A stretch of DNA of 43,755 bases from Candidatus Nanohaloarchaea archaeon (GCA_046497485.1 JAWOFP010000034.1:1-43755); one strand, 5' to 3'. Shown: positions 14,932-42,420, counted from the first letter of the stretch. The notes: a model not told the origin generated them from the sequence alone. A program made the numbers and translations.

Positions 14932-14990
14932 ACCTTAACTTTAGAGAGTCTGTTAAAAAAGGTTACCGCAGCCCCAAATCTAGAAAGTGT

Positions 14991-15581: not shown

Positions 15582-15665
15582 GCTTAGGACTTAGGCCTAG
15601 ATGTTTATAATAACTGTTTAATGGGAAAAGCTATATGCAATCTAGCAGAAAATAAATAAAAAATA

Positions 15666-17948: not shown

Positions 17949-18061
17949 CTATAGTTGAGGCCTCCAATAGATCTATAACCTGTATTTAGTTGTCTTCAGA
18001 CTTAAAATATAGTGACGGAATAATCGACAAATATTTACAGTTTAATCCCAAAACGGGAATT

Positions 18062-18385
18062 ATGCCACTGGCGTCTCAGGAAGAAATCGAAAACTTTGCA
18101 GACCATGTTAGAGCAGAGTTTGGGGAAAGATTAGAAGAAGTAATACTCTACGGATCATATGCAAGAGACGACCATGTACCTGGAAGCGACATAGACATAG
18201 CAATACTTGTAAACGGGAAGAAAAAAGATGATAGAGAAAAAATGTTCGATATAGCCGATAAATTTAGGGAAGAAAAAAATCTTAAATTCTCACCTCGCGT
18301 ATTCGAAAAGAAAGAGTTTAAGAAGAAAGCAGAGAACGACTGGAGCTTCCACTCAAATGTCGAGAAGGAAGGTGTAGAGATATGA
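18062..18385 (+). CDS. MNT minimal nucleotidyltransferase (antitoxin of a HEPN-MNT pair)
   Basis: LYGSYAR......SDIDI motif; start placed at ATG 18062. Confidence 0.92.
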   Translation: MPLASQEEIENFADHVRAEFGERLEEVILYGSYARDDHVPGSDIDIAILVNGKKKDDREKMFDIADKFREEKNLKFSPRVFEKKEFKKKAENDWSFHSNVEKEGVEI

Positions 18386-18750
18386 AGGAAGAAGAAAACT
18401 TGATCGGAAACGCAGAGGAAAGACTTTCAACAGCAAAACTGCTTCTAGAAAACGAAAAATATGGGGATGCTGTCTCAAGAGCATACTACTCAATGTTCAA
18501 CGCCTCCAAAGCCATTCTTCTTACTGAAGATTCAAAGCCTAGAACACATCAAGGAGTGAACAGCGAACTCGGAAAGCTTTTCAGAGAAAGAATAGACAAA
18601 GAACTCCTCAGAGAATTTTCAAGAATCCAGCAAATAAGAGAAGATGTAGACTACGGAACAGAAACGAAAATAAGCCAAAAAGAATCTGAAGAAAAAATAG
18701 AGATAGCAGAAGAATTTCTCATACAAGCCAAAAAAATAGTGGAAAAATAA
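18382..18750 (+). CDS. HEPN domain protein (toxin of a HEPN-MNT pair)
   Basis: A..RAYYSMF..KA.L, TH.GV and R...DY motifs; overlaps the MNT gene. Confidence 0.9.
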   Translation: MKEEENLIGNAEERLSTAKLLLENEKYGDAVSRAYYSMFNASKAILLTEDSKPRTHQGVNSELGKLFRERIDKELLREFSRIQQIREDVDYGTETKISQKESEEKIEIAEEFLIQAKKIVEK

Positions 18751-21700
18751 TTACTCCACAACCTGGCCTGAAACAGTTATCGACGCAGTCACATCGCTTC
18801 CATCACTGTTCGTGACCCTAACCGTTACATCAGATCCTTCCGAACCCTTCCCAACATCATTGATAGGAGTACCAGCAGTAGTGCTTCCCAAAACAGTACC
18901 CGAACCAGCATCATACACCTCTACCTCAAAATTACTGTTCGAGCCGCCGCCCTTCACTTGGACATCCAATCTTTCAATCTCAACACTCTCAGTACTATTA
19001 GTTCCAAACCTATTAACCTCCTCAGTTGAAAGGCCTGAACTCCAAGCAGTATGCCCACTACTATAACTAACCTCTCTAACATTCTTCTCATCAATCTGAC
19101 CATCAACACTTAGGTTTCCAGTCACATCAACATCATAAGGCTGAGAATCACTGCCAAACCGGGCAGTGTAATCACTGTTAGAAACAGAGTCTGCACCGAT
19201 TGCAACTGAGCCTTCACCCCCTGCAGAAGCCCCTGTTTCTGAGTTGTCACTATCTCCACCTATTGCAGTTGAGAAACTGCCTGAAGATTCAGCTCTCCAA
19301 CCAATTGAATTTGAAAAATCTCCTGATGATTTTGTTTCTCTTCCTAGTGCGATGGCAGAAGTCCCTGATGAATCTGCCTTATAACCTAATGCTGTCGCTG
19401 CATATCCTGTGTTATCAGCATCATAGCCTAAGACAGCTGAATAACCGCCTTCTGATGTAGCTTCCTTTCCAATTGCAATGTCTGAATTAGTGTTTGCGTT
19501 GCTACCAGCTTTTGCGTCCTTTCCTATTGCTATATCCTGAAACTCTGACCTGACATCAGCCCCAGTACCAATCACCACTCCACTCGGCATATCAAGGCCT
19601 CCCTCTCCATGAATCGTGGCATTACCCGTAACATTCAAATCTAGTTCCTCACCGTTCAGGTTGCCGAAAGTAGCCTCATAACTATTAGGCGCATTAGCAT
19701 ATTCTCCTATAGCTACCGATCCCTCAGCAGAGGCCTCAGATAGGGCGCCTAGGCTTACAGAGCTCTGACCAGATGAAACTGCGCTACTTCCAAATGCCGA
19801 TGCATCTGTCCCTGCAACAGAGTCAATACCAATTTCTGTACCGCCTGTACCGCCTGAACCTGGAGCATCTGTATTCCCTCCTATAGAAACTCTTGCAGCG
19901 TCAAAGGCCTCAACACCAGATCCAATAGCTATAGAGGGATTACTACTTGTGCCCACAGCCCCAGCACCATTACCAATAGCTATGTCATCGGTATTAGGGC
20001 TTTCAGTGGTGCTTTCTCCAATTTCAATACCATTACTAAATTCTATACTCTGATTCGCAACATTTCCAGCAGCCAAAGTCTCGCTGAGGCCTTCAGGAGC
20101 ACCACCGGTAGAGACACCGGTTAATTCACCGCCAACATTTAGATCACCTTGAACATCAGCATCCTGATGAACAGTAGCATTACCTGTAACATTCAAATCC
20201 AGTTCCTGACCTTGAAGGTTGCCTAAAGTGGCCTCATAACTATTAGGAGCGTTGGCATGGTATCCTATGGCTACGGAGCCTTCCGCGGTTGCATCTGTAT
20301 ATGATCCAAGTGCAGAAGCATAGCTACCTGTCGCCTTGCTATAGTATCCGAATGCGGAAGCTTGACTACTGGTAGCCTGGCTTTCCTCACCGAATGCAGC
20401 TGCGTAGGACGCTACTTTTGAGTTCCTACCGAAAACAGCGCTATAATCTTCAGCTTCAGCAGACCAGCCTACAGCAGTAGAGTAAGAGTTAACATCGGTA
20501 TCTTCACCGATAGCAATTGAAAACGTGTTACCCATAATCTTATCCTCTACCGTGGCGTTCTTACCGATAGCTATAGCGTCAAACTCTGTACCAGTATCTT
20601 CATCACCAATCTGAATATTATCCTCAAACTCAATAGTCTGATTAGCCACATTATTTTCCTCTAAAACCTCTGAAAGGCCTGAAGCAGAACCTCCGCCAGT
20701 ACTGACACCAGTCAATTCTCCATCAACATTGAGATCGCCAGTCACATCGACATCATAGGGAGTGGCATTACTTCCAAACCGGGCGGTGTAATCTTGATCG
20801 GAGATGGCGTCCATTCCAAAGGCGAAGCTTCCTGTTCCTGATGCTGATGCCGTATCTCCTAATGCATATGCATCGTTTCCTGAAGCTGAGGCCTCGTCTC
20901 CAATGGCATATGCGTCAGCGTTGGAGGCGTCTGCGTCTTCACCTAAAGCATACGCATCGCTCCCTGAAGCTGAGGCATTCTTTCCGAGTGCGTAGGCCTG
21001 ATCGGCAGAAGTCTCTGCACCATATCCAAGAGCGAAAGAAAACTGTCCATCTGAGGTTGCAGCGCTGATAGCTACTCCTTCATTTTGCAGGGCTTCAGCA
21101 CCTTCTCCCAGTGCTATAGTGTCTTTATTAGCTGCATATGCGTCTGAACCGATTGCCACCGCTTCATTAGCCGAGGTTTGTGCGCTGTGGCCTATGGCTA
21201 CAGCAGATCCTGCAAAATCAACATTATTATTTACGCTTACGTTTCTGCCAATACCAATAGAATTCTGATGTCCAACATACACATCGTCCCCCATAGCTAT
21301 CGATGAGTCTCCCTGATTATCTATGTTGTCGCCTATTTTGATTTGAGTATTGTCAAAAGATATAGGATTAGTCTGCATATCTAGAGGCCTGTGGGCGAAC
21401 ATGAGACCATTGTCCCTTTCAGCTGAGATCACGTCATATTCGTTTCCATCATTTTCTGTACCTATTACCACCCTATTATCATTAGTATCTCCATCAAACT
21501 GGCTATCATACTCAAGATAAGCACCATAATCATCACCTTCCTGCATCCTATAAGACATCACAGGATCACCCGCTTGAGGCTGTCTTAGTTCAACATTTCC
21601 AACCTCATTCAAATCATTATTACCAAGATCAATCGATTGATTAGCTGTATTATCTACTTCTAAAACGTCAGAAAGGCCTGAAGTTGAGCCATCTATCGAG

Positions 21701-21924
21701 CTACACTGAACTGTTCCATCGTCATTTATTCCAGTTGCCGCCTGATCGCCTGAACACGAACTCAATGGAAATCCTTGGATATTGGAATTCAGAATAACAT
21801 TATCATTGAACTCTGTCGGAGTTTGAAAGATTATATTTTGGTCATGGTTAAATGTTATATTTGCGGCTGCGAGGCCTGAACTTAGTAGAATTATGGCTGT
21901 AAGTGCAGTTAGTTTTAGTTTCAT
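18751..21924 (-). CDS. secreted YadA-head (Hep/Hag) repeat adhesin-like protein, no autotransporter barrel
   Basis: Sec signal; many 14-aa 'A.A.G..A.A.G' repeats in four blocks separated by repeated neck-like segments (G.L.V.G, GLSEVL...N.ANQ). Confidence 0.85.
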   Translation of the reverse strand: MKLKLTALTAIILLSSGLAAANITFNHDQNIIFQTPTEFNDNVILNSNIQGFPLSSCSGDQAATGINDDGTVQCSSIDGSTSGLSDVLEVDNTANQSIDLGNNDLNEVGNVELRQPQAGDPVMSYRMQEGDDYGAYLEYDSQFDGDTNDNRVVIGTENDGNEYDVISAERDNGLMFAHRPLDMQTNPISFDNTQIKIGDNIDNQGDSSIAMGDDVYVGHQNSIGIGRNVSVNNNVDFAGSAVAIGHSAQTSANEAVAIGSDAYAANKDTIALGEGAEALQNEGVAISAATSDGQFSFALGYGAETSADQAYALGKNASASGSDAYALGEDADASNADAYAIGDEASASGNDAYALGDTASASGTGSFAFGMDAISDQDYTARFGSNATPYDVDVTGDLNVDGELTGVSTGGGSASGLSEVLEENNVANQTIEFEDNIQIGDEDTGTEFDAIAIGKNATVEDKIMGNTFSIAIGEDTDVNSYSTAVGWSAEAEDYSAVFGRNSKVASYAAAFGEESQATSSQASAFGYYSKATGSYASALGSYTDATAEGSVAIGYHANAPNSYEATLGNLQGQELDLNVTGNATVHQDADVQGDLNVGGELTGVSTGGAPEGLSETLAAGNVANQSIEFSNGIEIGESTTESPNTDDIAIGNGAGAVGTSSNPSIAIGSGVEAFDAARVSIGGNTDAPGSGGTGGTEIGIDSVAGTDASAFGSSAVSSGQSSVSLGALSEASAEGSVAIGEYANAPNSYEATFGNLNGEELDLNVTGNATIHGEGGLDMPSGVVIGTGADVRSEFQDIAIGKDAKAGSNANTNSDIAIGKEATSEGGYSAVLGYDADNTGYAATALGYKADSSGTSAIALGRETKSSGDFSNSIGWRAESSGSFSTAIGGDSDNSETGASAGGEGSVAIGADSVSNSDYTARFGSDSQPYDVDVTGNLSVDGQIDEKNVREVSYSSGHTAWSSGLSTEEVNRFGTNSTESVEIERLDVQVKGGGSNSNFEVEVYDAGSGTVLGSTTAGTPINDVGKGSEGSDVTVRVTNSDGSDVTASITVSGQVVE
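20820..21030 (-). repeat. tandem 42-nt (14-aa) repeats ASASG.DAYALG
   Basis: About five degenerate copies, also visible in the DNA (cctgaagctgaggc recurs). Confidence 0.8.
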
Positions 21925-21967: not shown

Positions 21968-22735
21968 TTAGTCTTGAAAGCCTGTGAAAGTGAGGCCTGA
22001 TGAAGGGTTTATTGATGGAAGCTGTAGGTTCCCGTCCATTGTATTGTTTTGGCTTGAAACGTTTCCAGGGAGTGTTTGAGGGCCTTGAGCGCAGTTATCT
22101 CCGAAGCATTCTACTTCTACTTGGCTTGTTGTAAGCGTTCCTGTCATGTTGTCTCCTGAACGCGCCACTAATTCATTTGAATCGACCGTGTTTTCCGGGC
22201 AGTTATTTCCTATGCAGAGGCCTTTTGACTCATTCGGTACTAGTGATGCGTTGATTCTGAGTTCAGAGATTTGGCCCCCTCCAACGCTAAGATAGTTGAT
22301 TACTGCTTCTACTAGCGTTACAGGCAGTCTAATTGTGCCTTGAAGTCTTTGGTTTTGGACAGGGCCTCTGTCATGAACGATTGTAATATCCATTTCTGCG
22401 CAGCCGTTGCTTTCGTTCCCTTCCGCAACCAGGTACTGTTCTGTTTCTCCCGGTTCGAGCACCAGATTTGAGCCTTGTGTCACCCCACTTTGACCTCCTA
22501 TATTTACTTCTCTAATCCTTATTTGATCATTTGAAGAGCTTCTGAACAACATTTGAAGCTGATTCTGAGAGTTAAGGCCAGCTTCTTCAACTCTTAGATC
22601 AGGATGGAACACATCAGTCTCAACATCACATGAAGAAGAGTCTGTATAGGAATAAATACCGCCTGTAACTACTCCTAAGGCTATGACTGCCCATCCATAT
22701 GTTATCAGGTACTCGATTCCAGACTGGGCTTTCAT
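21968..22735 (-). CDS. type IV pilin-like protein #2 with C-terminal tail-fibre-like repeats
   Basis: KA|QSGIEYLITYGW; C-terminal CIGNNC...VARSGDNMTGTL and CFGDNC...VSSQNNTMDGNL. Confidence 0.8.
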   Translation of the reverse strand: MKAQSGIEYLITYGWAVIALGVVTGGIYSYTDSSSCDVETDVFHPDLRVEEAGLNSQNQLQMLFRSSSNDQIRIREVNIGGQSGVTQGSNLVLEPGETEQYLVAEGNESNGCAEMDITIVHDRGPVQNQRLQGTIRLPVTLVEAVINYLSVGGGQISELRINASLVPNESKGLCIGNNCPENTVDSNELVARSGDNMTGTLTTSQVEVECFGDNCAQGPQTLPGNVSSQNNTMDGNLQLPSINPSSGLTFTGFQD

Positions 22736-28049: not shown

Positions 28050-28382
28050 CTATCTCCAAGGAATATAGACTATCTCATTTTTCAGTTGGTCTACAGATAT
28101 TGAATTAAGTACCTTAATAACATCTGATGCTGTCCGTTTTTTACTCTGGCGTTTAGTTTGAAGAATAACGCCAACTTGATTCTCCTCACTTAATTTTCTG
28201 AAATCATCATCCCTTGTAAGTATAGAACGGTCGTGCTCTTGAGCATATTCAACCAACTTCATGTCGCCAACACCTTTCATATCAAGATCTTGAATATGTA
28301 CGACATCTATACCATAGGCCTCTAGTCTTTTGACAACAGTCTTTGAGATATGTTCATCCGCTAACAACTTGTGATCAGGCAT
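28050..28382 (-). CDS. DUF5615 PIN-like toxin
   Basis: LLADEHI, G..D....YA and ILTRDDDF motifs. Confidence 0.88.
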   Translation of the reverse strand: MPDHKLLADEHISKTVVKRLEAYGIDVVHIQDLDMKGVGDMKLVEYAQEHDRSILTRDDDFRKLSEENQVGVILQTKRQSKKRTASDVIKVLNSISVDQLKNEIVYIPWR

Positions 28383-28617
28383 TTGCCTCTACCTTGGATC
28401 TGAGCTCCTCACGCACAGTTTTCTTGTTATCATAGAAAAATCTTAATGCATCAAGAACCTGCTGAGGTTCAATACCATATTCTTTAGAAATCTCTTCAAT
28501 ATCCCATCCTAGTTCTTGATAGGCCTCCACTACATCCACAACACGGATCCTAGTGCCTTTAATCCTATGCTTGCCTCCGAAATGTCCTTCAGTGGAAACA
28601 ATATTTTCTTCAGCCAT
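28375..28617 (-). CDS. DUF433 antitoxin
   Basis: GGK.RIKGTRI.V..V and I..EY.I...QV.DAL motifs. Confidence 0.9.
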   Translation of the reverse strand: MAEENIVSTEGHFGGKHRIKGTRIRVVDVVEAYQELGWDIEEISKEYGIEPQQVLDALRFFYDNKKTVREELRSKVEANA

Positions 28618-28671: not shown

Positions 28672-29148
28672 CTAACCTGAGTAATCTACAAACAAGTTAT
28701 CTGGGGCTATTGGGGCTTCGCCGCCGACACTGAAAGGCCCTGTAACAGTTCCTGTGGCGCTTTGGTCATCGAGGCCTTCAATACTGTAAACTAGTTCTAT
28801 ATCAAAACTATTGCAGCCGCTGGATTCCTCAAATCCTGTAACTGTTACAGAAGAAACTCCTCCCGGATCTAGATCGCCATCCGTCACCGCAATAGAGCTG
28901 TTCTCAATTACGACTTCCTGAATCTCTACATTATCAGATCTCCTGTTCTCAAGAGCAATTGCTAACTCACTACCCGTAGTAAGGCCGAAATCCTGGATCT
29001 GGACGCTTTCACCTACAAAACCTGAACTCGACTCAACACAAGCAGTTCCAAAACTAGAGTAGGCGACACCTGAAACAATCGAGACCGTTATCAGCATCCA
29101 GCCATAGGTCGTCAAGTACTCGATCGCAGACTGCCCTTTCCTATTCAT
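28672..29148 (-). CDS. type IV pilin-like protein #3 with a C-terminal FN3 A-strand-like tail
   Basis: MNRKG|QSAIEYLTTYGW; ends APIAPDNLFVDYSG; ATG overlaps the upstream gene's stop. Confidence 0.85.
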   Translation of the reverse strand: MNRKGQSAIEYLTTYGWMLITVSIVSGVAYSSFGTACVESSSGFVGESVQIQDFGLTTGSELAIALENRRSDNVEIQEVVIENSSIAVTDGDLDPGGVSSVTVTGFEESSGCNSFDIELVYSIEGLDDQSATGTVTGPFSVGGEAPIAPDNLFVDYSG

Positions 29149-32030
29149 GGGTTCGAACCTCCAAGGCATTGATCGCCTCCGTCCTGATAACCTGCTTTTT
29201 CTCCCCCAAACCTGTTCCAGGCCTCAACCTGGTAACAATCACTTTGAGAATTATCTTTCAAGCCTGGATTAGCGACTCCAATTTGATAGAGATCATTTTG
29301 ATCAGAGCTTAAATCTTCAATCGGCACCGAAGCCACCTGACTGTAACTAGAGTTAGATGTAGCATTGTAAAGCACCCGGAACTCATCGACATTGTCTCCG
29401 GGATGAGTGAACTCAACTTCTGCTACATGAGTTGAGAAGTCGATAGTATTTGAAACAAACTCGCTGCTGTCTAAAGGTTCAGTTCCTGAAAGATAATAGG
29501 CCTCAGCACTGTAACCTTTGGAGTTCTCATTTACAATCCCGATTTTCGAAAGATTTAGAGAAATAACTTCTCCATCATCAACATTTCCTCTCGTAAACTG
29601 TCGAGTTTCAGTCCCGTTTGAAACATTAAACTCAAATCCCATATCTTTCTCTCCATCAGGATCAGAATCAACCTGGAACGCAATCGCATTCTCCCCATAT
29701 ACTTTCAGGTCTCCAAAGTTTCCAGGATTCAAGTTATCGCCGCTTGATATATCCTGAAGATTGTAATCCACGCCGTTTATATCTGCAACAGTAAAGTTGT
29801 AGAAATTATCGCTGTTATCCCTTTCAGCACCATAGGCCTCCAATGAGACATTCCATCTCTCAACAGAACCATTTCCGAAATCACTGATTCCTGAAGTATC
29901 GACCTGAACAGTATCTCCAGGATTAACATTGTTAGAAGTCTTAAAGTCGATTCCAGTAGATTCTCCAACCGTCACATTAATCGGGCTGTTACCATCAACA
30001 GTTACATTCAAGACAGGATTAGGATCGACAGACTCATCATGAGGCTCCGCCAAAGACACTTGAGGCCTCTCAACCGTTGTAAAGTTCCAGACCTGGCTTT
30101 GAGCACTTTGTCCATTGTAGGTAGAGTTAGAGTACCATTCATACTCTGTGCCTGGATCAAGATTCTGACTTTCTAGGCTTACATTGATCCTTTCATTTGG
30201 AGAGGAAAGATTGCCGCCTAAAGCAAGATCGCTCCCGGACTCATTCACAATATAGAACTCGAGGCCTGTCTCAATACCTGAAGAATTACTTTCCGCACTC
30301 AAATCCCAGTCAAGGCCTACCGGCTCAGAATCATTCTTCGGTAAAGGATTAACCGGAGGATTTAGTGTAGAGACATTGAGGACCTGAGTCGCGTAATCGC
30401 TGCCACTGGAAAAGTTTGCAGTATACTCTCCTGAATCGCCCTCACTCGTAGAAATACTCAAGGTCTCAGTAGTGGCGCTTCCTCCATCCAAAGTCAGAGA
30501 AGTAGAGTTGGAACCGAGACCCGGAATACTTAGATCCAATGTGGTGCTTCCATCAGCGCCCGTATTCTCAATCAAGGCCTCAACCTCAACATCATTGCCC
30601 TCAATCACAGGCTCATTGACATCCTGAACAGTAACAGCAAAGTAAGGCCCTGTTGCAAAACTAACGACGCCTCCAGACTCAGTGAAGAGCTGTGTTGTTG
30701 ACTTAGTTATTTTACTGCCTACCTCTCCATCCTCCGATTTTGCTCTAAATTCGTACTCAGTATCAGGATTCAAACCCTCAACTCTTTCTTTATAAAATCC
30801 GTCTACTGAACGCTTATCAGCATTTACAGTATTCCATGTTGATGCGCCTGTTTCTTTATACTGGAACTGCAGCTGGATTTGATCATTAATATCTCCAGTA
30901 AACTGTGATACATCAGTGATTTCTCCATTAAATCTAAACCAGTCAACACCGATATCTGCTCCAGTAGTTGAAATATTATACCTGCTGGTAGTATCAGAAT
31001 TTACGCTTCCACAGTAATCCTTTGTACAGGCTTCAAACTCGTAATCTGTATCAGGGTTAAGACCTGTGACAACCCGATTGAATGTTTCCGAGCTATCGAT
31101 AGTTCCTGCATCAACCTGCTGCCAACTCCCTCCTGTTTCCCTGTAATTAAACCATGCATTGATCGGGTCCTCTAAATTAGATAGACTTGAAGCTTCCCCT
31201 GTAAAGTTTAACGACCTATCACCTACTCCATCTGTTCCGGTTGTCAAAACACTGTAATCCTGAGTTGTGAAAGACTGCTGTCCTCCAGACTGCGTAAACA
31301 ACTGAGTAGTGTATTTTGTCAAGATGCTGCCTTGATAACCGTCCTCCGACTTAGCCCTGAACTCATACTCTGTATTCGGACTAAGGCCTTCAACACGCTC
31401 TTCAAATATGCCGTCACTATCCTTCAAATCTGCATTGGCAGTAGTCCAACTAGGTGCCCCAGCCTCTCTATACTGAAACTGCAACTGAATCATATCATCT
31501 ATAGTATCCGTAAAACCTGCAACATTCTGAATATCTCCTCTGAATCTCAGCCAATCGACCCCGATATCAACACCCTCAGTTGAAACACTATAAGTACTTG
31601 TTGTATCTGAATCGATCCCGCCTCCGTAGTCTTTAGTAAAAGCCTCAAATTCGTACTCAGTACCAGGATCAAGACCTGTAACTACACGGCTAAAAGCTTC
31701 TGAATCTTCAACTGTTCCAGCATCAACCTGCTGCCAAGAATCACTCGTCCCTGCTTCCCGATACTTAAACCAGGCCTCAACAGGATCATCAACAGAACTT
31801 AGGCCTGTAGTATTCCCTGTGAAATTCAAGGATTTATCGCCCACTCCATCCGTTCCAGTAGTATAAACCTGGTAATCCTGAGTAGTGAACGAAACATTTC
31901 CTCCCGGCTCAGTAAAGACATCTACAGCTAAGCCTCCAGCACTTAACACAACTAAGGTCAGCGATAGAACCAAAGCTCTAAAAACTAAAGTCAAAACATG
32001 CTTCCTTCCACTGTAGAGTTTCTTGAACAC
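29145..32030 (-). CDS. secreted multi-FN3/Ig-domain surface protein
   Basis: Signal peptide; duplicated ~206-aa unit of two FN3-like domains (GL.P.TEYEF); CARDB-like and further Ig-like domains. Confidence 0.85.
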   Translation of the reverse strand: MFKKLYSGRKHVLTLVFRALVLSLTLVVLSAGGLAVDVFTEPGGNVSFTTQDYQVYTTGTDGVGDKSLNFTGNTTGLSSVDDPVEAWFKYREAGTSDSWQQVDAGTVEDSEAFSRVVTGLDPGTEYEFEAFTKDYGGGIDSDTTSTYSVSTEGVDIGVDWLRFRGDIQNVAGFTDTIDDMIQLQFQYREAGAPSWTTANADLKDSDGIFEERVEGLSPNTEYEFRAKSEDGYQGSILTKYTTQLFTQSGGQQSFTTQDYSVLTTGTDGVGDRSLNFTGEASSLSNLEDPINAWFNYRETGGSWQQVDAGTIDSSETFNRVVTGLNPDTDYEFEACTKDYCGSVNSDTTSRYNISTTGADIGVDWFRFNGEITDVSQFTGDINDQIQLQFQYKETGASTWNTVNADKRSVDGFYKERVEGLNPDTEYEFRAKSEDGEVGSKITKSTTQLFTESGGVVSFATGPYFAVTVQDVNEPVIEGNDVEVEALIENTGADGSTTLDLSIPGLGSNSTSLTLDGGSATTETLSISTSEGDSGEYTANFSSGSDYATQVLNVSTLNPPVNPLPKNDSEPVGLDWDLSAESNSSGIETGLEFYIVNESGSDLALGGNLSSPNERINVSLESQNLDPGTEYEWYSNSTYNGQSAQSQVWNFTTVERPQVSLAEPHDESVDPNPVLNVTVDGNSPINVTVGESTGIDFKTSNNVNPGDTVQVDTSGISDFGNGSVERWNVSLEAYGAERDNSDNFYNFTVADINGVDYNLQDISSGDNLNPGNFGDLKVYGENAIAFQVDSDPDGEKDMGFEFNVSNGTETRQFTRGNVDDGEVISLNLSKIGIVNENSKGYSAEAYYLSGTEPLDSSEFVSNTIDFSTHVAEVEFTHPGDNVDEFRVLYNATSNSSYSQVASVPIEDLSSDQNDLYQIGVANPGLKDNSQSDCYQVEAWNRFGGEKAGYQDGGDQCLGGSNP
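30651..31920 (-). repeat. internal tandem duplication (~618-nt unit x2) in the FN3 protein
   Basis: The units SFTTQDY.V.TTGTDGVGD ... EYEFRAKSEDG align along their whole length. Confidence 0.85.
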
Positions 32031-32078
32031 TAAATAGAATATTTTTATCGTTAAATAAAAATGTATTAGCAGAAGTAT

Positions 32079-33362
32079 TTAGTTGAAATCATATGTAGCC
32101 ACATATCCATCGTATGAACTAGTTGCCATTTTAGATCCATCAGGGCTAAATGTTAGGCCATCAGCCCTGCTAGGAGGAGTTATGCTATCAATCTGTGTAG
32201 CCGTGCTAACGTCCCACGGAGCGGACATCTCATACTCATTCATAGTTGCTCCTCCTGCTGAATCAACAAGTATCAGTTTTGAGCCATCTTTGCTGACATG
32301 TATTGAATTGATATCTTCAGTAAGGCCTGAAGTCTTAGATGAAACAAATGAAGCCGTATTAATATCCCAGGGTTCTGATAGCTCATACAGAGAAACCTCA
32401 TCCCCATATCTGGCTAATATCATTTTAGAACCATCTGGGCTAAAATCGATATTGGAATATTCCTTGCTTAATACTTCTTGATATTCATAATTTGCCGTTG
32501 TTAAATCCCAAGGCGTACTTAAACTGTGATACGTAATCTCAGTTTCATCGTCATAATTAATGTAGATTTCATAATAACCAGATCCGTTAGGCATAAACGC
32601 ATAATCTCTACCATTTTCAGTAGTATCTACCCTCTCTCCTGCAGTATTTATATCCCATGGAGTAGAAAGCCTGTACTGATAAATTCCGCTATTTTCGATA
32701 TACATATAACTTCCATTTGAACTAAATTCTATATTGTCCGCATCTATAGAAAGCGTGGTGGAAGAAATTTCATTATAACTCCGTCCTAAATCAATTGAAG
32801 CCGAAGTAGGTAACTCTCCATTGTTAGACTCAAATTCTGAGACAAGAGCCTCTCTACCTTCTTGGCTCGTGGATGCATAAAAGTTATTAAAATCTATAGT
32901 GTCTAAATTTCCTGAAACAGCATTAAACAACTTTATGCCAATACCGCCTCTTGACAATTTTTCATCCAAATTTTCTTCTAAAGTGGTATCCCCCCATATT
33001 ACGGGTTCTGCATAAGCTTCAACACTATATCCAGTATCGGGAGACAATCCTGACGTTAGAGATTGAAGCTGTTCTTCATTAAATGCAATATTTGCCGGAC
33101 CTCTTTGACTTAATGAATTATCTTGAGAATAATTCCAATAAACTAATGCCGCATCGAAATCAGCGTCCAGTTGGTCTACTGTTGCTTGAAAAGTAGCTTC
33201 CGTTTCTTTCACGTTCGTAACTGGATCTGTAGTAACATTGAGATTGTATTCTCCGCTCTGTTGTGGAGAAACCTGTCCTACCGCGTTTGTGATAGCGAAC
33301 CCGATAAGGATTAGAAGGCCTATGCCTGCTGCAATATGATGCTTTTCTGTTTTAAGCTCCAT
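32079..33362 (-). CDS. secreted protein with an N-terminal FN3-like domain and a C-terminal beta-propeller
   Basis: Signal/TM; VTT......A.F.A...GLSPDTGY; repeated F...GS.....Y.LS.PWD..TA blades. Confidence 0.8.
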   Translation of the reverse strand: MELKTEKHHIAAGIGLLILIGFAITNAVGQVSPQQSGEYNLNVTTDPVTNVKETEATFQATVDQLDADFDAALVYWNYSQDNSLSQRGPANIAFNEEQLQSLTSGLSPDTGYSVEAYAEPVIWGDTTLEENLDEKLSRGGIGIKLFNAVSGNLDTIDFNNFYASTSQEGREALVSEFESNNGELPTSASIDLGRSYNEISSTTLSIDADNIEFSSNGSYMYIENSGIYQYRLSTPWDINTAGERVDTTENGRDYAFMPNGSGYYEIYINYDDETEITYHSLSTPWDLTTANYEYQEVLSKEYSNIDFSPDGSKMILARYGDEVSLYELSEPWDINTASFVSSKTSGLTEDINSIHVSKDGSKLILVDSAGGATMNEYEMSAPWDVSTATQIDSITPPSRADGLTFSPDGSKMATSSYDGYVATYDFN

Positions 33363-33461
33363 TGATCATGTTTGTGGATTCTTTGTTTTTATATTTTGGA
33401 ATTTTTGTTGACGGCAATCTTGTTGGGTAAGAGATTTAATTCTTTAGTCAAATTGTTTGTT

Positions 33462-33686
33462 ATGACTAGTATTGTTGAGTCTGAAGGAGTTGTGGGCGGG
33501 AAGCCTAGGGTTGAAGGTACTCGTGTCCAGGTTGATGATGTTGTAGGGGCTTACCGTGAGTGGGATTGGAGTATTGAGAGAATTGCGTCAGAGTATGATT
33601 TGAGTGTTCCACAGGTTTTGGATGCTTTAAAGTATTATTACAATAATATGAGTGATTTTCCAGCAGACTCTGATGTAGAGGCTTGA
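33462..33686 (+). CDS. DUF433 antitoxin
   Basis: GGKPRVEGTRV.V..V and QVLDALKYY; start placed at ATG 33462. Confidence 0.9.
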   Translation: MTSIVESEGVVGGKPRVEGTRVQVDDVVGAYREWDWSIERIASEYDLSVPQVLDALKYYYNNMSDFPADSDVEA

Positions 33687-33691
33687 TTAAA

Positions 33692-34030
33692 ATGGCGTTA
33701 AAGCTTTTAGCAGATGAGAATATTCCTAATGCTGTAGTTGATCAGCTTGATAAAACTAATATCGATGTTATTTCTGTAAATGGGTTGATGAAAGGAGGAA
33801 GCGATGTAGAAGTTTTTGAAAAAGCTGTAGAGGACGAAAGAGCAGTTTTAACAATTGATAAAGATTTTGTGTCAGGTCTTGAAGAAGAATTTAAGCATTA
33901 TGGAATAATCAAGTTCCGAGAAAGATACAGGATAGGGAGAATGGTCAAAGATGTACAGAAGGTAAATTCTACACTGTCCAGCGAAGAATTAAATGGAACT
34001 ATAGTTTACCTTCCTTGGGGCAGCCAATAG
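33692..34030 (+). CDS. DUF5615 PIN-like toxin
   Basis: LLADENIP, G.SD..V...A and LT.DKDF motifs. Confidence 0.88.
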   Translation: MALKLLADENIPNAVVDQLDKTNIDVISVNGLMKGGSDVEVFEKAVEDERAVLTIDKDFVSGLEEEFKHYGIIKFRERYRIGRMVKDVQKVNSTLSSEELNGTIVYLPWGSQ

Positions 34031-34145: not shown

Positions 34146-35801
34146 TTACTGCACTGTCAGAGTTCTATCACTCGAATATTCACTTTCTGAAGTACTTGGA
34201 ACATTTATTGAGGCCTGCCAGTTGTATTCTGTTGCGTTTAAATCTTGATTAAATGTATAGCTGTTTTGGTCAGCCGAGATAGATGTCTGATTGCTGAACT
34301 GTTCTTCCCCATTTATGCCTTCGCCTGATATCCTGAGATTTACATTAGTCTCCAAATCTAGACTGAATTCGAAGTTTACAGGGCTTGAGGCCTCCGCGTT
34401 GTCGGAAGGATTGTCTATACTGAAGGCTCCTATGTTTCCGTAGGCTCTAGTGTTTTCTATTTCTCTCTTGCTTGATTCCCAAGTGTTGGTTGAGTCTTCG
34501 ACTTCAATCCAGTACTCTTGAACTCCGGCCTGAGGGATCGGAGCTGTTACACCAGTATCTTCTCTGATATTAAGTCCGGGTTCTAGCGGCACCGAGGCCT
34601 CCCTATCTCCGTTTACTACGACATGTGCTTCCTGTCCTGTTCTGGCGTTGTCTACTTGGAACTCGAACTCATGCTCTGCTGTAACTGTATCGCCATCTGA
34701 CGGACTTGCTAGTATTATCTCAGGTCCCGAGTATTCTGGATCTGCTCTCATGAAGTCTGTATCTGTCTCAGTAAACCCATTTGCATCTTTTACTTCGAGC
34801 ACTATGTCATAGGCGCCTTCCTCTGGAATCGTGTAATCAACTGTTTCTCCTTGAAGAGTGTCGTTAAAGTTTTCATGATCGAAAGTCCAGTTATAGCTTG
34901 CGATTTCGTTTTGGCTTTCTGTACCTGAGGCATCAAAAGTAACTGTTTCTCCTGCGTACTCCATTCCTGAACGCTCCATTACAGGAGTTATATCTCCAGT
35001 CGACCCGGATTCTCTTTCTTCATATCCTTCTACTTGGAAGGTTTCCTCTATAGTTGAGGCCTTCAAAGTCATTTCTTGAGTGTTTGGAACTTGGAATGTT
35101 AGGCCTCCTGCAGTAGTTGTCTCTCCTAAATTATCTCCATTTAACTGGACCTGTTGGTTCCCTAGAGCTTCACCGTTTTCTAAAAGAGTTAGTCTATTTG
35201 TTTCTTCTGCTACAGGACTGCTGTCAAGTCTAAAACCTGTGAACCCTTTTTCATCATCTGAGCCATCGTCGGAATCCTGTGAGTCATCTTGATCATCTGA
35301 GTCTTCTGAATCATTATTTGAATCTTCAGAGCTCTCATCGGAACCATCTGAATCATCAGAACCCCCTGAATCATCCTGATTTGAGTCTCCCTGATCGGAA
35401 TCATCTGAGGCCTCTCTAGTCTCGCTCGCATCTTCCTCAACACTTATCTCATCTGTAGTATAGTATCCGTCATAGCTGACATTCACCGGGAAATCATTTT
35501 CCAGGCCTCTGACCATTAGTTTTCCATTCCTGTTAGTTTCTCCCACATTCAAGTTGTCGAGTCTGACAGTAGCGCCTTGAACATTTTCCCCATCTAAACT
35601 AACGGTTAAAGTCGTTAATTCATTCGGTTCCAGAGGCCTTTTATCGAACTCGACCTCTAAATCAGGTTCTTCATCTCCCCCAGTCAGAAAATCAGGGGAG
35701 AAATCGGCGATATATAGCCCGGAGACTACTAGAACTGTTGAAAGACCTAATATCCAGTATCCTAGCATTTCTGTATCTATTTCGTACTGTCCTGTCTCCA
35801 T
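34146..35801 (-). CDS. membrane-anchored surface protein with an Asp/Ser linker, PKD and Ig-like domains
   Basis: N-terminal TM; D/S low-complexity tract at about 35255-35430; VTFDAS.T......SY.W.F ... G.Y...L.V.D..G. Confidence 0.82.
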   Translation of the reverse strand: METGQYEIDTEMLGYWILGLSTVLVVSGLYIADFSPDFLTGGDEEPDLEVEFDKRPLEPNELTTLTVSLDGENVQGATVRLDNLNVGETNRNGKLMVRGLENDFPVNVSYDGYYTTDEISVEEDASETREASDDSDQGDSNQDDSGGSDDSDGSDESSEDSNNDSEDSDDQDDSQDSDDGSDDEKGFTGFRLDSSPVAEETNRLTLLENGEALGNQQVQLNGDNLGETTTAGGLTFQVPNTQEMTLKASTIEETFQVEGYEERESGSTGDITPVMERSGMEYAGETVTFDASGTESQNEIASYNWTFDHENFNDTLQGETVDYTIPEEGAYDIVLEVKDANGFTETDTDFMRADPEYSGPEIILASPSDGDTVTAEHEFEFQVDNARTGQEAHVVVNGDREASVPLEPGLNIREDTGVTAPIPQAGVQEYWIEVEDSTNTWESSKREIENTRAYGNIGAFSIDNPSDNAEASSPVNFEFSLDLETNVNLRISGEGINGEEQFSNQTSISADQNSYTFNQDLNATEYNWQASINVPSTSESEYSSDRTLTVQ

Positions 35802-35865: not shown

Positions 35866-38709
35866 TCAGCCCTTAATATTCACTACAGGCCTCATTTTAG
35901 CCACCTTTTTACCGATTCCTAGAGAGTCGCTGACTTCTATGACTTCATCCACATCCTTGTAGCTGCCAGGCGCTTCCTCCGCGATTGTTGAGCCTGATGC
36001 TGCTTTAACATGGATACCTTCCCGTTTCAAGTCATTCTGAATATCTTTACCCCAGTAATCCTGCTTGGACTGGCTCCTAGACTTTAACCGGCCGGCACCA
36101 TGAGCAGTTGAACCGAATGAAAGACTCATGCTTTTTTCTCCACCGGAAAGAATATAGCTTGAAGTCCCCATAGTACCAGGAATCAATACAGGTTGGCCAG
36201 ACTCTCTGTAGGTCTCCGGAACTTTTTCATGTCCTGGCGGAAAGGCTCGTGTCGCACCTTTTCTATGAACAATAACATCCTTCTGTTTACCATTTACTTC
36301 GTGAGTTTCCTCTTTCGCAATGTTGTGACAGACATCGTAAACCAGGCCTACATCAGGACCGCCAAATAAAGTTCCAAGTGACTCTCTCACAGCTTGAGTG
36401 ATAGCCTGGCGGTTGCACCATGCAAAGTTTGCCGCTGCATACATCGCCCCTTTGTAATCCTGTGCTTCCTGCGAGTCTATAGGGGCATAGATCAAGTTCT
36501 TTTCCGGAATACTTTCAGCGATATCTGGGTAAGCTTTCTCAAACTCCCTCACATAGTCTGAGCAGGTCTGATGGCCTAAACCTCTAGAACCTGAATGAAT
36601 CATTACCAAGACTTGATCCTCTTCTAGCCCGAAGGCCTCAGCCTTCTCCTCTGAGAACACTTCATCAACTACCTGGACTTCTAGGAAATGGTTTCCGCTG
36701 CCTAAAGATCCTAGTTGTTTTAGGCCTCGAGTCTTAGCTTTCTCCGGCACCTTGTCCGAGTTCCCCGGTAGTCGGCCGTTTTCCTCACAGTGTTCCAAGT
36801 CTTCTTTTTCTGCGTGACCGTTTTCCAGCATCCAATCCATTCCTTTTTCCAGAATTTCCTCTAAATCTTCTTCATCGATATCGATGTACCCTCCTTTACC
36901 GAGCCCACACGGAACCTTCGAATAAAGAATGTTAGCCAATTGCTCCTCCATCCCATCAATGTCACCCGCTGTTAAACCAGTTTTAAGCACTCTAACCCCG
37001 CAATTAGATACGATAAACTGGTTTGCATTAAAATTATGAGCTTCATGCTTTACACCAATATCATACACCGTTTCTACACCATCAGCCTCAATTTCTTTGA
37101 TCGTAGTCTTAACAGCAAGATTATCCTTTACTTCAATGTTTTTTGCAAATTCTTCAAAGCTAGGAAAATCCTTAGGAGGCCTTGGACTAGTTTTCCGACC
37201 GCCATATACACTTCTTTCTATAAACCTGTCATTTATCTCAAATCTCTGTTTTATGTCTTTCGGAGCCATACCTCCTTCATACAGCTGTACAGCTTGTTTT
37301 GAGATATTTTTCCTTCTTTCAATTGCTTTTTTCTTGGTTTTAAGATATTGAACTACTCTCACAGACTTTATCCTTTTTTCTAAATTATAGCGATAGCCTA
37401 TCCGGGTGTAGAAATTAATTAAATTTTCTAAGTCGTTCTTTATACCAAGCCTGTGCCTCATTACCTCTCCATCTTGGTTTTCATGAGTTTCGAATGCCTC
37501 AATATTATTCGTGTTTATATTGAGATCCTGTAAAAGCTGTTTTATGCCGCTCATGAATTGTTTGCCGCTCTCTCCAATATTTTTGGACTTGTTTTGGGAG
37601 ATTTTTGGACAATAAAAGTCTTTTGCATGCTGGGCTTTAGGCGAGCTCATCTCTGCTCCAAAGAACGCTGAGAGATAAAGTGCTTTTTGCCATCCTGTCA
37701 ATCTATGCACGTATTCAGGTACAGTAAATTCTTGAGCTGTTTTCTTTCCTTTAGGCGCACCAAGTTTTACAAGTAGTTTTTGGAATGCATTGGAAGTTGA
37801 TTTTATAGACGTTTCGGTTCTTTCGAAGGGCTCCAGTCTTACTTGATGAGTTCTTTTTCTTTCATAAATTGGAGACGGCTTAAACCCTATTCTGCGGATA
37901 TCTTCTGCTATACTTTCTAAGTCCTCCTTGTCAGCATAAAATGTTGTTTCACTGTGATTATTGAATGATCCATCTCCTGTATGAAATCCTACGAGTTTCA
38001 AGAGCAGATTAAATTCTTCGTCAGTAGATTTCAAAGGAAGTAAGTCTCTTTGTTTCAAAGCCTCAATAAGCTGAGGATTCTCTCCCTCAAAGTCTTTTTC
38101 AGTGAGAAGAGTAAATTCTTCAGGTTCTTCATCCTCTACCCCTTCAAAAGGCTGAACATATACTTGTTCTCCTTTATTTAGGTCTTCCACTTCTTTCATG
38201 CCATTAGGCGTTAGGAACGGATGATCTTTAGTTGCTTTAATAGACTCTCCAGTCTCAGTCTCTACGTTAAAAACTTGTTTATCTTCGTTTTCAGTGAAAA
38301 GAACGATATCTGATTCAATTGCCTTCTCTCCTGCAACTACAGCTTTTTCATCAGCAAAGTTCTTCTTCAATTCAGCAATGGATTTGCTTCTTCCGAATTC
38401 AAGAAGGACGTTCGAATCCCTAGATAAGCAATTAATATCGAAGCCTATGCCTCCAGGGCTTATAAGCCCGTTTTCTGCGTTGAAAGCTGCGACTCCTCCG
38501 ATAGGGAACCCATAACCTTGATGGCCGTCAGGCATCACACAAACATGCTTTTCCACACCTGGCAATTTCGCCATATTACAGGCCTGCTCCAATGTAGCAT
38601 CCTCCTTAATCGTCTCCAATAAATCCTCAGAAGCATAAATTTTAGCCGGAACATTCATTCCCTCTTCCAAAATACTGTAAGTATTCTCCTCAACTTTTTC
38701 TATCTCCAT
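35866..38709 (-). CDS. rtcB: RtcB RNA/tRNA-splicing ligase with intein
   Basis: MPD.H.GYG.PIG, GFDIN|CG, GSLGSGNHFLE, HSGSRG, HN, HRKGATR and HGAGR; 471 aa after intein removal. Confidence 0.97.
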   Translation of the reverse strand: MEIEKVEENTYSILEEGMNVPAKIYASEDLLETIKEDATLEQACNMAKLPGVEKHVCVMPDGHQGYGFPIGGVAAFNAENGLISPGGIGFDINCLSRDSNVLLEFGRSKSIAELKKNFADEKAVVAGEKAIESDIVLFTENEDKQVFNVETETGESIKATKDHPFLTPNGMKEVEDLNKGEQVYVQPFEGVEDEEPEEFTLLTEKDFEGENPQLIEALKQRDLLPLKSTDEEFNLLLKLVGFHTGDGSFNNHSETTFYADKEDLESIAEDIRRIGFKPSPIYERKRTHQVRLEPFERTETSIKSTSNAFQKLLVKLGAPKGKKTAQEFTVPEYVHRLTGWQKALYLSAFFGAEMSSPKAQHAKDFYCPKISQNKSKNIGESGKQFMSGIKQLLQDLNINTNNIEAFETHENQDGEVMRHRLGIKNDLENLINFYTRIGYRYNLEKRIKSVRVVQYLKTKKKAIERRKNISKQAVQLYEGGMAPKDIKQRFEINDRFIERSVYGGRKTSPRPPKDFPSFEEFAKNIEVKDNLAVKTTIKEIEADGVETVYDIGVKHEAHNFNANQFIVSNCGVRVLKTGLTAGDIDGMEEQLANILYSKVPCGLGKGGYIDIDEEDLEEILEKGMDWMLENGHAEKEDLEHCEENGRLPGNSDKVPEKAKTRGLKQLGSLGSGNHFLEVQVVDEVFSEEKAEAFGLEEDQVLVMIHSGSRGLGHQTCSDYVREFEKAYPDIAESIPEKNLIYAPIDSQEAQDYKGAMYAAANFAWCNRQAITQAVRESLGTLFGGPDVGLVYDVCHNIAKEETHEVNGKQKDVIVHRKGATRAFPPGHEKVPETYRESGQPVLIPGTMGTSSYILSGGEKSMSLSFGSTAHGAGRLKSRSQSKQDYWGKDIQNDLKREGIHVKAASGSTIAEEAPGSYKDVDEVIEVSDSLGIGKKVAKMRPVVNIKG
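37003..38430 (-). mobile_element. intein (476 aa) with LAGLIDADG homing endonuclease
   Basis: Starts CLSRDS; block B ATKDHPF; LVGFHTGDGS and LSAFFGAE; ends VYDIGV....NF.AN...VSN|C. Confidence 0.95.
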
Positions 38710-38733: not shown

Positions 38734-39090
38734 TTATTTTAGGTCTTGTGAGAGGCCTAGGCTTATTTCTATGGCTTCATCTATTTCATTCATCTTCTCT
38801 CCAGCAATTTCCCCAAATTTTTTCTTTATCCTTTTTTGCTTATCTATCGTGAATATCTGGTTCAGCATCGCTTTTGTATCTCTATTTACTTCCTCTTCTT
38901 CAGCTCTAATTTCAACATCAGTAGGATATACTTCACTATAACTTGAAGAGAGGGCTGCTACTATTATTGTAGGTGCGTGAGCGTTTCCAACATCGTTCTG
39001 TATCACTATGCATGGACGCGTTTTACCTTGTTCAGAACCTTTCTTAGGCTCAAGATCTACTAGAATAAGATCTCCTCTAGTTATTTCCAT
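38734..39090 (-). CDS. mazF: MazF/PemK-family toxin
   Basis: RGD...V.L.P..GSEQGK.RP..VIQND and QI.TIDK motifs. Confidence 0.93.
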   Translation of the reverse strand: MEITRGDLILVDLEPKKGSEQGKTRPCIVIQNDVGNAHAPTIIVAALSSSYSEVYPTDVEIRAEEEEVNRDTKAMLNQIFTIDKQKRIKKKFGEIAGEKMNEIDEAIEISLGLSQDLK

Positions 39091-41670: not shown

Positions 41671-42420
41671 ATGGCTAGCCCAGAACAAATCCAGAAGATA
41701 AAAAAGCTAGCTAAAAAAGGAGAATCAGTTAATAAAATTAAAGAAACACTAGAACTACCGAAATCAACAGTTTATTATCACTTCAAAAAAGAAGTAGGAC
41801 AAAAACAGAAAGAAAAGGCCTTAAAAATCCCAGAAGACGAAGAAATCAAAGGAGAGCTATGTGGAATATTCGCAGGCGACGGAAACTTCTACAAAGAGAA
41901 AAACCAGCAGTACAGGATAAGATTTTATTTCAATTATCACGAAAAGTATTGGGAAGTTCTTGCCGATTTTCTTGAAGAGAAACTTGAAAGAAGGCCTCGA
42001 ATCTATAAATATCCTCATAAAGGGCGCGTAGAATTTGATTACTCATCTAAACCTCTTTACAAATTGTTAAAAGAAAACCTTGACTGGGGCACAGATAAAA
42101 CAGAAAGCATTAGGCTGAAAGAAGATAAAGATTTCTGCGAAGATTTTCAAAGAGGTTTTATTAGAGGTCTTTTAGATACTGACGGTCATCGAGAGAAAAA
42201 GTTTAGAAGATTTATCTATGGGACAATAAGCGTAAGTCTGCGAAATAATTTTTCCAAGATATTAGAAGATTTTATTATAGAACATACAAATTATAAAGAA
42301 GAACCAGAACAAGAGCATTGGAGAACTATGCACAAACTGTGGATTTCAGGTGACGAAGCAGAGATATTTCAGAGAAAAATAAGCCCTAGAAATCCGAAGA
42401 AGCAATATCGCGAGTTTTAA
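41671..42420 (+). CDS. free-standing LAGLIDADG endonuclease-family protein with N-terminal HTH
   Basis: G.S...I...L.LPKSTVYY (HTH); ELCGIFAGDG and FIRGLLDTDG motifs. Confidence 0.85.
   Translation: MASPEQIQKIKKLAKKGESVNKIKETLELPKSTVYYHFKKEVGQKQKEKALKIPEDEEIKGELCGIFAGDGNFYKEKNQQYRIRFYFNYHEKYWEVLADFLEEKLERRPRIYKYPHKGRVEFDYSSKPLYKLLKENLDWGTDKTESIRLKEDKDFCEDFQRGFIRGLLDTDGHREKKFRRFIYGTISVSLRNNFSKILEDFIIEHTNYKEEPEQEHWRTMHKLWISGDEAEIFQRKISPRNPKKQYREF

Follow-up and report, generated by a model that had tools for sequence, protein, structure and literature searches.

How a binding head encoded by one gene might be mounted on the cell surface by the product of another is the question raised by a locus in Candidatus Nanohaloarchaea archaeon (GCA_046497485.1 JAWOFP010000034.1:1-43755); the window is this whole stretch of 43,755 nucleotides (nt), contig C51 of a 0.97 Mb genome in 66 contigs (97% complete), and the proteins that it encodes are strongly acidic. 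Four surface-protein genes lie on its minus strand, coding for a PKD-domain protein, a head protein of 427 amino acids (aa), a scaffold protein of 961 aa and a type IV pilin-like protein. The evidence, all of it computational, points with a probability of roughly 55% to a two-part docking system on the nanohaloarchaeal surface based on a split fibronectin type III (FN3) domain, in which the head protein would carry an FN3-like module devoid of its last strand (strand G) and the scaffold would donate this strand in trans. To our knowledge, the molecules by which nanohaloarchaea and other DPANN archaea, which live attached to host cells, make contact with their hosts are largely unknown. A study on a DPANN symbiont goes no further than suggesting a role for type IV pili (PMC11291902).

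The head protein and its missing strand

The head protein is composed of an N-terminal hydrophobic signal or anchor (aa 1-29), the FN3-like module, a helical linker and a β-propeller, with the following features:

32079..33362, minus strand: head protein, 427 aa; open reading frame (ORF), Foldseek, and AlphaFold2 model of mean predicted local distance difference test score (pLDDT) 82.7 from 44 sequences
33000..33242, minus strand: FN3-like module, strands A-F, aa 41-121; predicted acceptor without a G strand (AlphaFold2)
32946..32999, minus strand: turn and helix after the F strand, aa 122-139, IWGDTTLEENL...; conserved, touching the donor strand in the co-fold
32085..32777, minus strand: β-propeller head, aa 196-426; block-mean pLDDT 83-97; repeated LS-x-PWD-x-x-TA motif

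In the AlphaFold2 model, the module is made of six strands at aa 41-49, 55-65, 71-79, 86-93, 98-104 and 113-121 (A, B, C, C′, E and F), followed by a helix at aa 126-139, a poorly modelled helical linker and the propeller; the block-mean pLDDT is 88-93 for aa 41-120, with means of 77 for aa 121-130 and 68 for aa 131-140. A seventh strand, as expected of a complete FN3 domain, was not seen in the predicted module, and the segment VIWGDTTL, which the initial annotation had singled out as the one that might complete the domain in cis, is modelled as a turn and the start of the helix and not as a G strand. Residues D125, L128 and N131 of this region are invariant in an alignment of 14 sequences (A1), and N131 is nearly invariant in one of 27 (A4). 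The order first proposed for this protein, an FN3-like domain leading into a helical region without an SFTT strand and then into a propeller, is borne out by the same model. The propeller fold of the head is recognised by both its AlphaFold2 strands and Foldseek, whose best matches are WD40-type propellers (probability 1.00, TM-score by target 0.4-0.5); no specific propeller family is claimed, since Pfam propeller families match the head below their curated cut-offs. Generic WD40 propellers also dominate the Foldseek result for the whole head model, which gave no information on the module. The head protein is not taken to have a class III signal, since its hydrophobic stretch precedes the conserved G-Q instead of following it.

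The head protein holds the sole copy of the module in the source genome. Among the listed Pfam matches of the module there is no FN3 family, and phmmer searches started from it reach tandem-FN3 proteins at E-values of 1e-10 to 1e-3. A search with aa 30-135 against 1.8 billion representatives returned 53 proteins at E 0.001 or better; about 25 of them have an N-terminal module and a length of 190-440 aa, and most of the others are large tandem-FN3 proteins, in which the match typically covers query positions 13-90 (strands A-F) and stops at AYAEP, that is, at the F strand. Within 29 of these large tandem-FN3 proteins, 72 of the 163 F-like strands (19 of the 29 proteins) are followed, at a distance of up to 20 residues, by a G-like tail of the form G-x(2-4)-[ST][FYW][TSHAK][TS], as in ...YG-NQVSFTT, and the same pattern was found in none of the 27 module-family proteins. 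This absence, together with the six predicted strands that run into a helix, is the basis for reading the module as an incomplete FN3 domain. A profile comparison by hhalign of the module family with the scaffold FN3 domains, used solely for the point at which the alignment ends, stops at the F strand as well (probability 27%, E 6.6e-4).

Since complete FN3 relatives continue after strand F with G-x-x-x-S-F-T-T, and three motifs of the scaffold read GGNVSFTT, GGQQSFTT and GGVVSFAT, the strand lost by the module would be the very strand that the scaffold has in excess, and as far as the sequences can tell the two correspond almost letter for letter. The module also appears to behave as a conserved mount in front of differing C-terminal heads: in six relatives it is 54-64% identical and the C-terminal parts are unrelated, seven further relatives are similar over the full length at 32-39% identity, and a Pfam analysis of 19 family members assigned propeller matches to two and no family at E 0.01 or better to 14.

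Other characteristics of the head protein were noted in passing. At aa 77-79 (33126-33134, minus strand), N77 is invariant across the 27 module-family proteins, as is the adjoining W76, and Y78 is nearly so; S79 is invariant only in the 14-sequence alignment and is replaced by T in several of the 27. The resulting N-Y-S/T constitutes an N-glycosylation sequon in strand C of the module, outside the predicted interface. A helical insertion at aa 140-187 (32802-32945, minus strand; pLDDT below 55) is present, among the aligned relatives, only here and in P0002.

The scaffold and its surplus G strands

The scaffold protein begins with a signal peptide and continues with two tandem units, each made up of two FN3 domains, then with an Ig/CARDB-like domain and other β-rich domains. 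Its membership of the FN3 family is indicated by a Pfam fn3 match of 51.2 bits, over a cut-off of 25, accompanied by matches to PF16656 (44.2 bits) and PF25059 (43.9 bits). The segments on which the argument depends are listed below:

29145..32030, minus strand: scaffold protein, 961 aa; ORF, Pfam, AlphaFold2, orthologues P0123-P0125
31881..31916, minus strand: motif 1, aa 39-50, FTEPGGNVSFTT; predicted mature N-terminus, directly after the predicted signal peptide
31263..31298, minus strand: motif 2, aa 245-256, FTQSGGQQSFTT; predicted donor strand in the co-fold
30651..30686, minus strand: motif 3, aa 449-460, FTESGGVVSFAT; precedes the Ig/CARDB-like domain
31305..31331, minus strand: cis G-like strand of FN3 domain 2a, GSILTKYTT, aa 234-242; spacing from the F strand as in P0130
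30693..30719, minus strand: cis G-like strand of FN3 domain 2b, GSKITKSTT, aa 438-446; the PF16656 match ends within it

The three copies share the pattern F-T-x-x-G-G-x-x-S-F-x-T, and the orphan-strand peptides reported in the initial annotation are present as claimed, within 4 nt of the positions given there. In a six-frame translation of the whole genome (1.93 million residues), the strict pattern F[TSIRL]xxGGxx[ST]F[STAG][TA] has three matches, all of them in the scaffold ORF. Because aa 245-448 repeat aa 39-244 as a tandem duplication (136 of 206 residues identical, 66%, E 9e-100), the repetition of the motif is inherited and the copies are not independent; motif 3 lies just past the repeat and opens the next, different domain. 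The informative point is where the motifs are placed and not that they are repeated, and one copy has no domain in front of it. Motif 1 stands behind the signal peptide, and motifs 2 and 3 come after FN3 domains that already bear a G-like strand at canonical spacing, the PF16656 match stopping at scaffold aa 442, which is profile position 89 of 93; the description of these strands as surplus is therefore retained. The cis use of one of the two tandem G-like strands is deduced from this spacing because the model is of pLDDT below 50 there. When the scaffold is modelled alone by AlphaFold2 (12 sequences, mean pLDDT 73.8), motifs 1-3 form only tiny bridges; confident packing of the orphan strands inside the scaffold, the other outcome that the initial annotation had named as contradicting strand donation, was not observed in this model.

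The placement of the motif is kept in other scaffolds. A copy directly after the signal peptide was found in the four orthologues examined (P0121, P0123, P0124 and P0125), and P0123, P0124 and P0125 have also retained the last copy ahead of the Ig/CARDB-like domain, although that of P0124 lacks the leading F-T. In these last three, which are 42-56% identical to the scaffold, copies stand ahead of domains of the FN3-1, FN3-2 and Ig-like types alike; P0122, which is more distantly related, has a variant of the motif in four copies, and in looser tandem-FN3 relatives the motif occurs as the normal G strand with which a domain ends. A C-terminal membrane anchor or sorting motif was not recognised in the scaffold sequence. 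The C-terminus itself (29145-29240, minus strand) has a Cys...Cys tail, C-Y-Q-V-E-A-W-N-R-F-G...C-L-G-G-x-x-P, shared with P0123, P0124 and P0125.

Predicted complex of scaffold and module

Scaffold aa 36-470, which include all three motifs, were co-folded with a single module (aa 30-140), an alignment being supplied for each partner. The score was 0.82 in three runs, versus 0.00 for the best of three controls; the mark used is reached by 116 of 157 solved complexes and by 2 of 215 mismatched pairs, and passing it supports binding without being proof of it. At least 87% of the contacts are common to the runs, and the partner has a pLDDT of at least 88. On the scaffold side, the interface is formed by aa 242-259, that is, motif 2, together with some residues from the FN3 domain on either side, and on the module side by the F strand (104-120), the A strand (41-48), residues 51-56 and the conserved turn and helix (122, 125-128 and 131). 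The pairs of lowest error join scaffold 245-247 with module 117-119, 249 with 116 and 45, and 254-256 with 108-112, and from this order motif 2 is placed antiparallel to F and beside A, which is the position of a G strand. The prediction thus shows the arrangement of donor-strand complementation, with scaffold aa 245-256 paired in antiparallel fashion with module residues 119 to 108. Conservation in the module is higher at the predicted interface than elsewhere (0.66 versus 0.55, one-sided Mann-Whitney p = 0.002). The known module-motif pairs are three and too similar for covariation.

The initial annotation had proposed that the scaffold captures up to three propeller heads by strand donation; of this, donation to the module finds support at motif 2, both from the co-fold and from the identity of the motif with the canonical G strand of relatives. 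The binding predicted here probably takes place in the cell, and more than one of the motif sites may be used.

Gene neighbourhood and distribution

The head and scaffold genes are 48 nt apart, the scaffold gene being downstream, and the remaining members of the cluster are:

28672..29148, minus strand: type IV pilin-like protein, 158 aa from the Met at 29148; sequence MNRKGQSAIEYL...
34146..35801, minus strand: PKD-domain surface protein, 551 aa; PKD_4 41.3 bits; upstream neighbour

The PKD-domain protein has an N-terminal membrane helix and an acidic linker, and a plus-strand DUF433/DUF5615 pair (33372-34030) is located between its gene and the head gene. An NCBIfam scan of the four cluster proteins returned nothing useful. 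The order PKD, module protein, scaffold, pilin is found again in L007, a second contig from Nanohaloarchaea; the module protein there has a head that is not a propeller, and the scaffold has three motifs. About 3 kb, made up of a gene resembling an insertion sequence (IS) and a DUF433/DUF5615 toxin-antitoxin pair, separate the module gene from the scaffold gene in that contig, and the PKD gene is a fourth conserved neighbour, so that the three-gene operon first suggested for the cluster finds no support so far. In L007 and in another contig (L006), the PKD gene immediately precedes the module gene. Scans of public collections detected three loci in metagenomes and one in genomes, with the whole cluster in L007 only. 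The module is present in three of the 70 genomes of the class that were searched, the source genome included, all three belonging to one genus; a phylum-level search covered the same 70 genomes and made no additions. For the N-terminal half of the scaffold, two weak partial matches were found elsewhere among the related genomes searched.

The ATG of the pilin-like gene, at 29148, overlaps the TGA of the scaffold gene as ATGA, an overlap that is repeated in L007, and the pilin-like protein, which would be translationally coupled, may anchor the assembly; this overlap is what speaks for the link to a pilin proposed in the initial annotation. Class III signals consist of a short charged N-terminus, a G followed by Q, A or S at the cleavage site, and a hydrophobic helix. 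The protein starts with MNRKG-QSAIEYLTTYGWMLITVSIV (MNRKG-QSAIEYL) followed by a hydrophobic helix, which may be a class III (prepilin) signal. A Pfam family was not found for it up to E 10, PF04021 included; its neighbours in the protein atlas are archaeal proteins of about 150 aa, and PF04021 is assigned to 18-27% of the members of some of the clusters. Type IV assembly ATPase and platform genes are present in the genome (five matches to PF00437 and four to PF00482 over the cut-off), none of them beside the cluster, and PF01478 (peptidase A24) has no match in this 97% complete genome.

Other pilin-like genes accompany large surface proteins in the window. A 1057-aa protein with YadA-head repeats (98.6 bits; 18751-21924, minus strand) is encoded directly downstream of a 255-aa pilin-like gene (MKAQSGIEYL...; 21968-22735, minus strand), in an archaeon; the YadA-head family is known from trimeric autotransporter adhesins of bacteria. 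At 14461-17948 (minus strand), the gene for a 760-aa surface protein with GLUG motifs comes before those for a membrane-anchored protein of 196 aa and a pilin-like paralogue of 156 aa (MTKGQSAIEYL...). With three such pairings in the window, the association of big surface proteins with pilin-like proteins looks habitual here.

Toxin-antitoxin and homing-type genes are dense in the window for a genome of less than 1 Mb. Two inverted DUF433 and DUF5615 (PIN-like) pairs, at 28050-28617 (minus strand) and 33372-34030 (plus strand), flank the cluster of three genes, and in L007 a homologous pair (10882-11469) lies beside a 304-aa IS-like gene and a duplicated fragment of that gene. The two toxin-antitoxin pairs were not taken as the borders of a mobile island, because L007 has the order RtcB, PKD, module, scaffold, pilin as well. 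The RtcB ligase itself (35866-38709, minus strand) is 947 aa long here versus 471 aa in L007 and L009, with about 476 extra aa after ...GFDINC, where the shorter homologue reads on GIRVLKTG; judging by its sequence, this insertion looks like an intein with an endonuclease part. A nucleotidyltransferase/HEPN pair (17990-18750, plus strand), a MazF/PemK-like toxin gene (38734-39090, minus strand) and a free-standing LAGLIDADG ORF (41671-42420, plus strand) were also identified.

Weighing the alternatives

Several observations weigh against docking by strand donation, the support for which comes from two structure predictors and from sequence patterns. The alignments supplied to the co-fold were our own and shallow (12 and 27 rows), and with such input its calibration is only approximate, and a β-edge beside a flexible, β-prone linker may be an easy false positive, strand pairings of FN3 domains being abundant in solved structures. 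Only a single copy of the module was folded, and since it took motif 2, the evidence covers that site only. The most conserved stretch of the module (DAALVYWNYS on the C strand, with the invariant N-Y-S) lies outside the predicted interface, which means that the conservation of the module has other causes too, and the support from hhalign for homology between module and FN3 domains is weak, at the probability of 27% given above. In the scaffold model, both the cis G-like strands and the motifs have pLDDT values below 50, which leaves room for motifs 2 and 3 to be the real G strands of the domains before them. Co-occurrence of the components is known from two complete loci, in one of which (L007) the inserted genes part the module gene from the scaffold gene by about 3 kb; in the 69 other genomes of the class that were searched, the module appears in two, as fragments at contig ends in both, and the scaffold was not found in the four other genomes of the same genus.

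These points may be accommodated in different ways. The motif could be a mere structural linker, such as a hairpin that stiffens the junctions between domains, next to a module that is stable with six strands and a helix cap, so that there would be no docking and the co-fold would be a false positive. This explanation, which is considered unlikely but deserves serious attention, draws on the duplication of units 1 and 2 (66% identity), by which the motif would be repeated without any need of function, on the low-confidence hairpin-like bridges of the AlphaFold2 model (S248 with Q252-T255 and S452 with V456-A459), on the conserved helix after the F strand, which could cap the open edge, and on the approximate calibration of the co-fold with alignments of our own. 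It does not sit well with the retention of the motif behind the signal peptide, where no domain precedes it, nor before three kinds of following domain in orthologues of 42-56% identity; moreover, the motif equals the G strand missing from the module, the co-fold separates the pair from the best of three controls (0.82 versus 0.00) and the motifs are not packed in cis in the monomer model. Docking might also be real and monovalent, if motifs 2 and 3 supplied the G strands of the FN3 domains before them in cis and GSILTKYTT and GSKITKSTT were inserted loops; motif 1 alone would then be free, in the manner of the N-terminal extension of a chaperone-usher pilin. AlphaFold2 is undecided between the tandem G-like strands (aa 231-251 and 435-447 have pLDDT below 50), the PF25059 match extends to aa 455, into motif 3, and motif 1 is the sole copy without a domain in front; nevertheless, the co-fold assigned motif 2 and not motif 1, though both were present, GSILTKYTT and GSKITKSTT are spaced from the F strand as in canonical arrays such as P0130, and PF16656 stops matching at aa 442, four profile positions from its end. 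This arrangement is considered distinctly improbable.

The open edge of the module could instead serve another partner, be it the N-terminal segment of a neighbouring copy, in a self-polymerisation like that of archaeal threads, or the pilin-like or PKD protein, a suggestion to which very little probability is given. Conservation extends to the segment that follows the signal cleavage site, G-Q-[VI]-T-T-Q, in which Q30 is found in every sequence of the alignment of 14; the genes for the pilin-like and PKD proteins recur in the neighbourhood, and homopolymeric strand donation is a known archaeal mode, as described in the available parts of PMC9715654 and PMC12337348; however, the N-terminal segment is polar and devoid of a G-like motif (none of 27), and the motif is confined to the scaffold in the source genome.

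Proposed mechanism and significance

Under strand donation from the scaffold to the module, the head protein would be secreted by a Sec-type signal and would start with the FN3-like module of strands A to F, in which the edge of the C′-C-F sheet would be left open for want of a G strand, with the short conserved helix next to it. The scaffold, also secreted, would bear up to three extra FN3 G strands (F-T-x-x-G-G-x-x-S-F-T-T) in flexible linkers, one of which would insert antiparallel beside the F strand of the module, in contact with the A strand. The sandwich would thereby be completed in trans, by donor-strand complementation, and the propeller head fixed onto the scaffold. Since relatives differ in the C-terminal head but hardly in the module, the scaffold might act as a generic socket strip for interchangeable heads, and the assembly may be an adhesin for contact with the host. 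A further extension, in which any secreted protein with the invariant G-less module, whether its head is a propeller or another, would plug into a chaperone-free, cellulosome-like socket strip held on the cell by the pilin-like protein, as a reconfigurable multivalent adhesin for host capture by DPANN archaea, is tentative and rather doubtful.

If this extension were true, it would be the first heteromeric and multivalent strand donation in archaea and a natural FN3-based tag/catcher pair. The recruitment of separately encoded heads by a scaffold through a strand missing from their stalk would be a new architectural use of strand donation, and would explain how binding heads can be swapped on a constant mount in tiny genomes. 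The small size of the partners (about 12 aa and about 95 aa) and their adaptation to salt would also offer a split-domain pair of possible use as a tool for assembly akin to protein ligation. No description of such an FN3 strand-complementation scaffold, or of a nanohaloarchaeal counterpart, was found in the literature covered, from which subscription journals are absent.

Comparison with known systems

Tip adhesins of the FimH type, from chaperone-usher pili, consist of a binding head and an Ig-like domain that is devoid of its last strand and receives it, beside strand F, from another protein. The head protein described here resembles them in the fusion of a binding head to a strand-deficient attachment domain, which would be completed in trans next to F. 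The systems differ in that the attachment module is N-terminal and FN3-like in the nanohaloarchaeon, in that the predicted donors are three internal or N-terminal strands of one polypeptide and not the N-terminal extension of the next pilin, and in that the organism is an archaeon with a single membrane. Neither a chaperone nor an usher was seen among the ORFs of the window scanned with Pfam, the rest of the genome not having been searched for them.

In cellulosomes, the scaffoldin offers several equivalent sockets to separately encoded proteins that share a small docking module, through the interaction of cohesin and dockerin. The likeness lies in a single scaffold with several equivalent sockets for proteins with a common docking module; unlike the binding of two folded modules, the contact predicted here is the completion of a fold by a strand. 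The Pfam scan of the head and scaffold proteins returned no cohesin or dockerin at E 0.1 or better, and the term scaffoldin-like, used in the initial annotation, is kept as an analogy only.

Strand donation in archaea is known, from the available parts of the sources, as a way of building homopolymers (PMC9715654, PMC12337348, 10.1101/2024.12.30.630787). The threads of Sulfolobus (PMC9715654) and the Tafi bundling pili of haloarchaea (PMC12337348) are described there as secreted, joined by donor strands and distinct from the chaperone-usher route, and Pyrodictium cannulae are also counted among these filaments (10.1101/2024.12.30.630787). The comparison is one of architecture and not of sequence: in both cases, Sec- or Tat-secreted archaeal surface proteins are, or are predicted to be, joined by donor-strand complementation, but each subunit of those filaments is donor and acceptor at once, whereas donor and acceptor would be separate proteins here, with a multivalent donor and no filament implied. 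The head has no copy of the motif, the three genome-wide copies being in the scaffold, and an acceptor-type domain was not identified in the scaffold by Pfam or AlphaFold2.

The donor-strand mechanism is named both for the Sulfolobus threads (PMC9715654) and in the available text on the Enterococcus Elr/WxL pilus, an operon-encoded display of adhesins by strand exchange in which WxL is presented as an invariant attachment unit with a variable payload (10.64898/2026.10.17.759780). The WxL fold, the membrane chaperone, the sortase anchoring and the confinement to Bacillota that characterise it, as far as that text goes, do not apply to the nanohaloarchaeal pair. By analogy of function, FimH-type tip adhesins and the WxL of the Elr pilus would be the nearest counterparts of a head that is held on a scaffold by a strand that it lacks.

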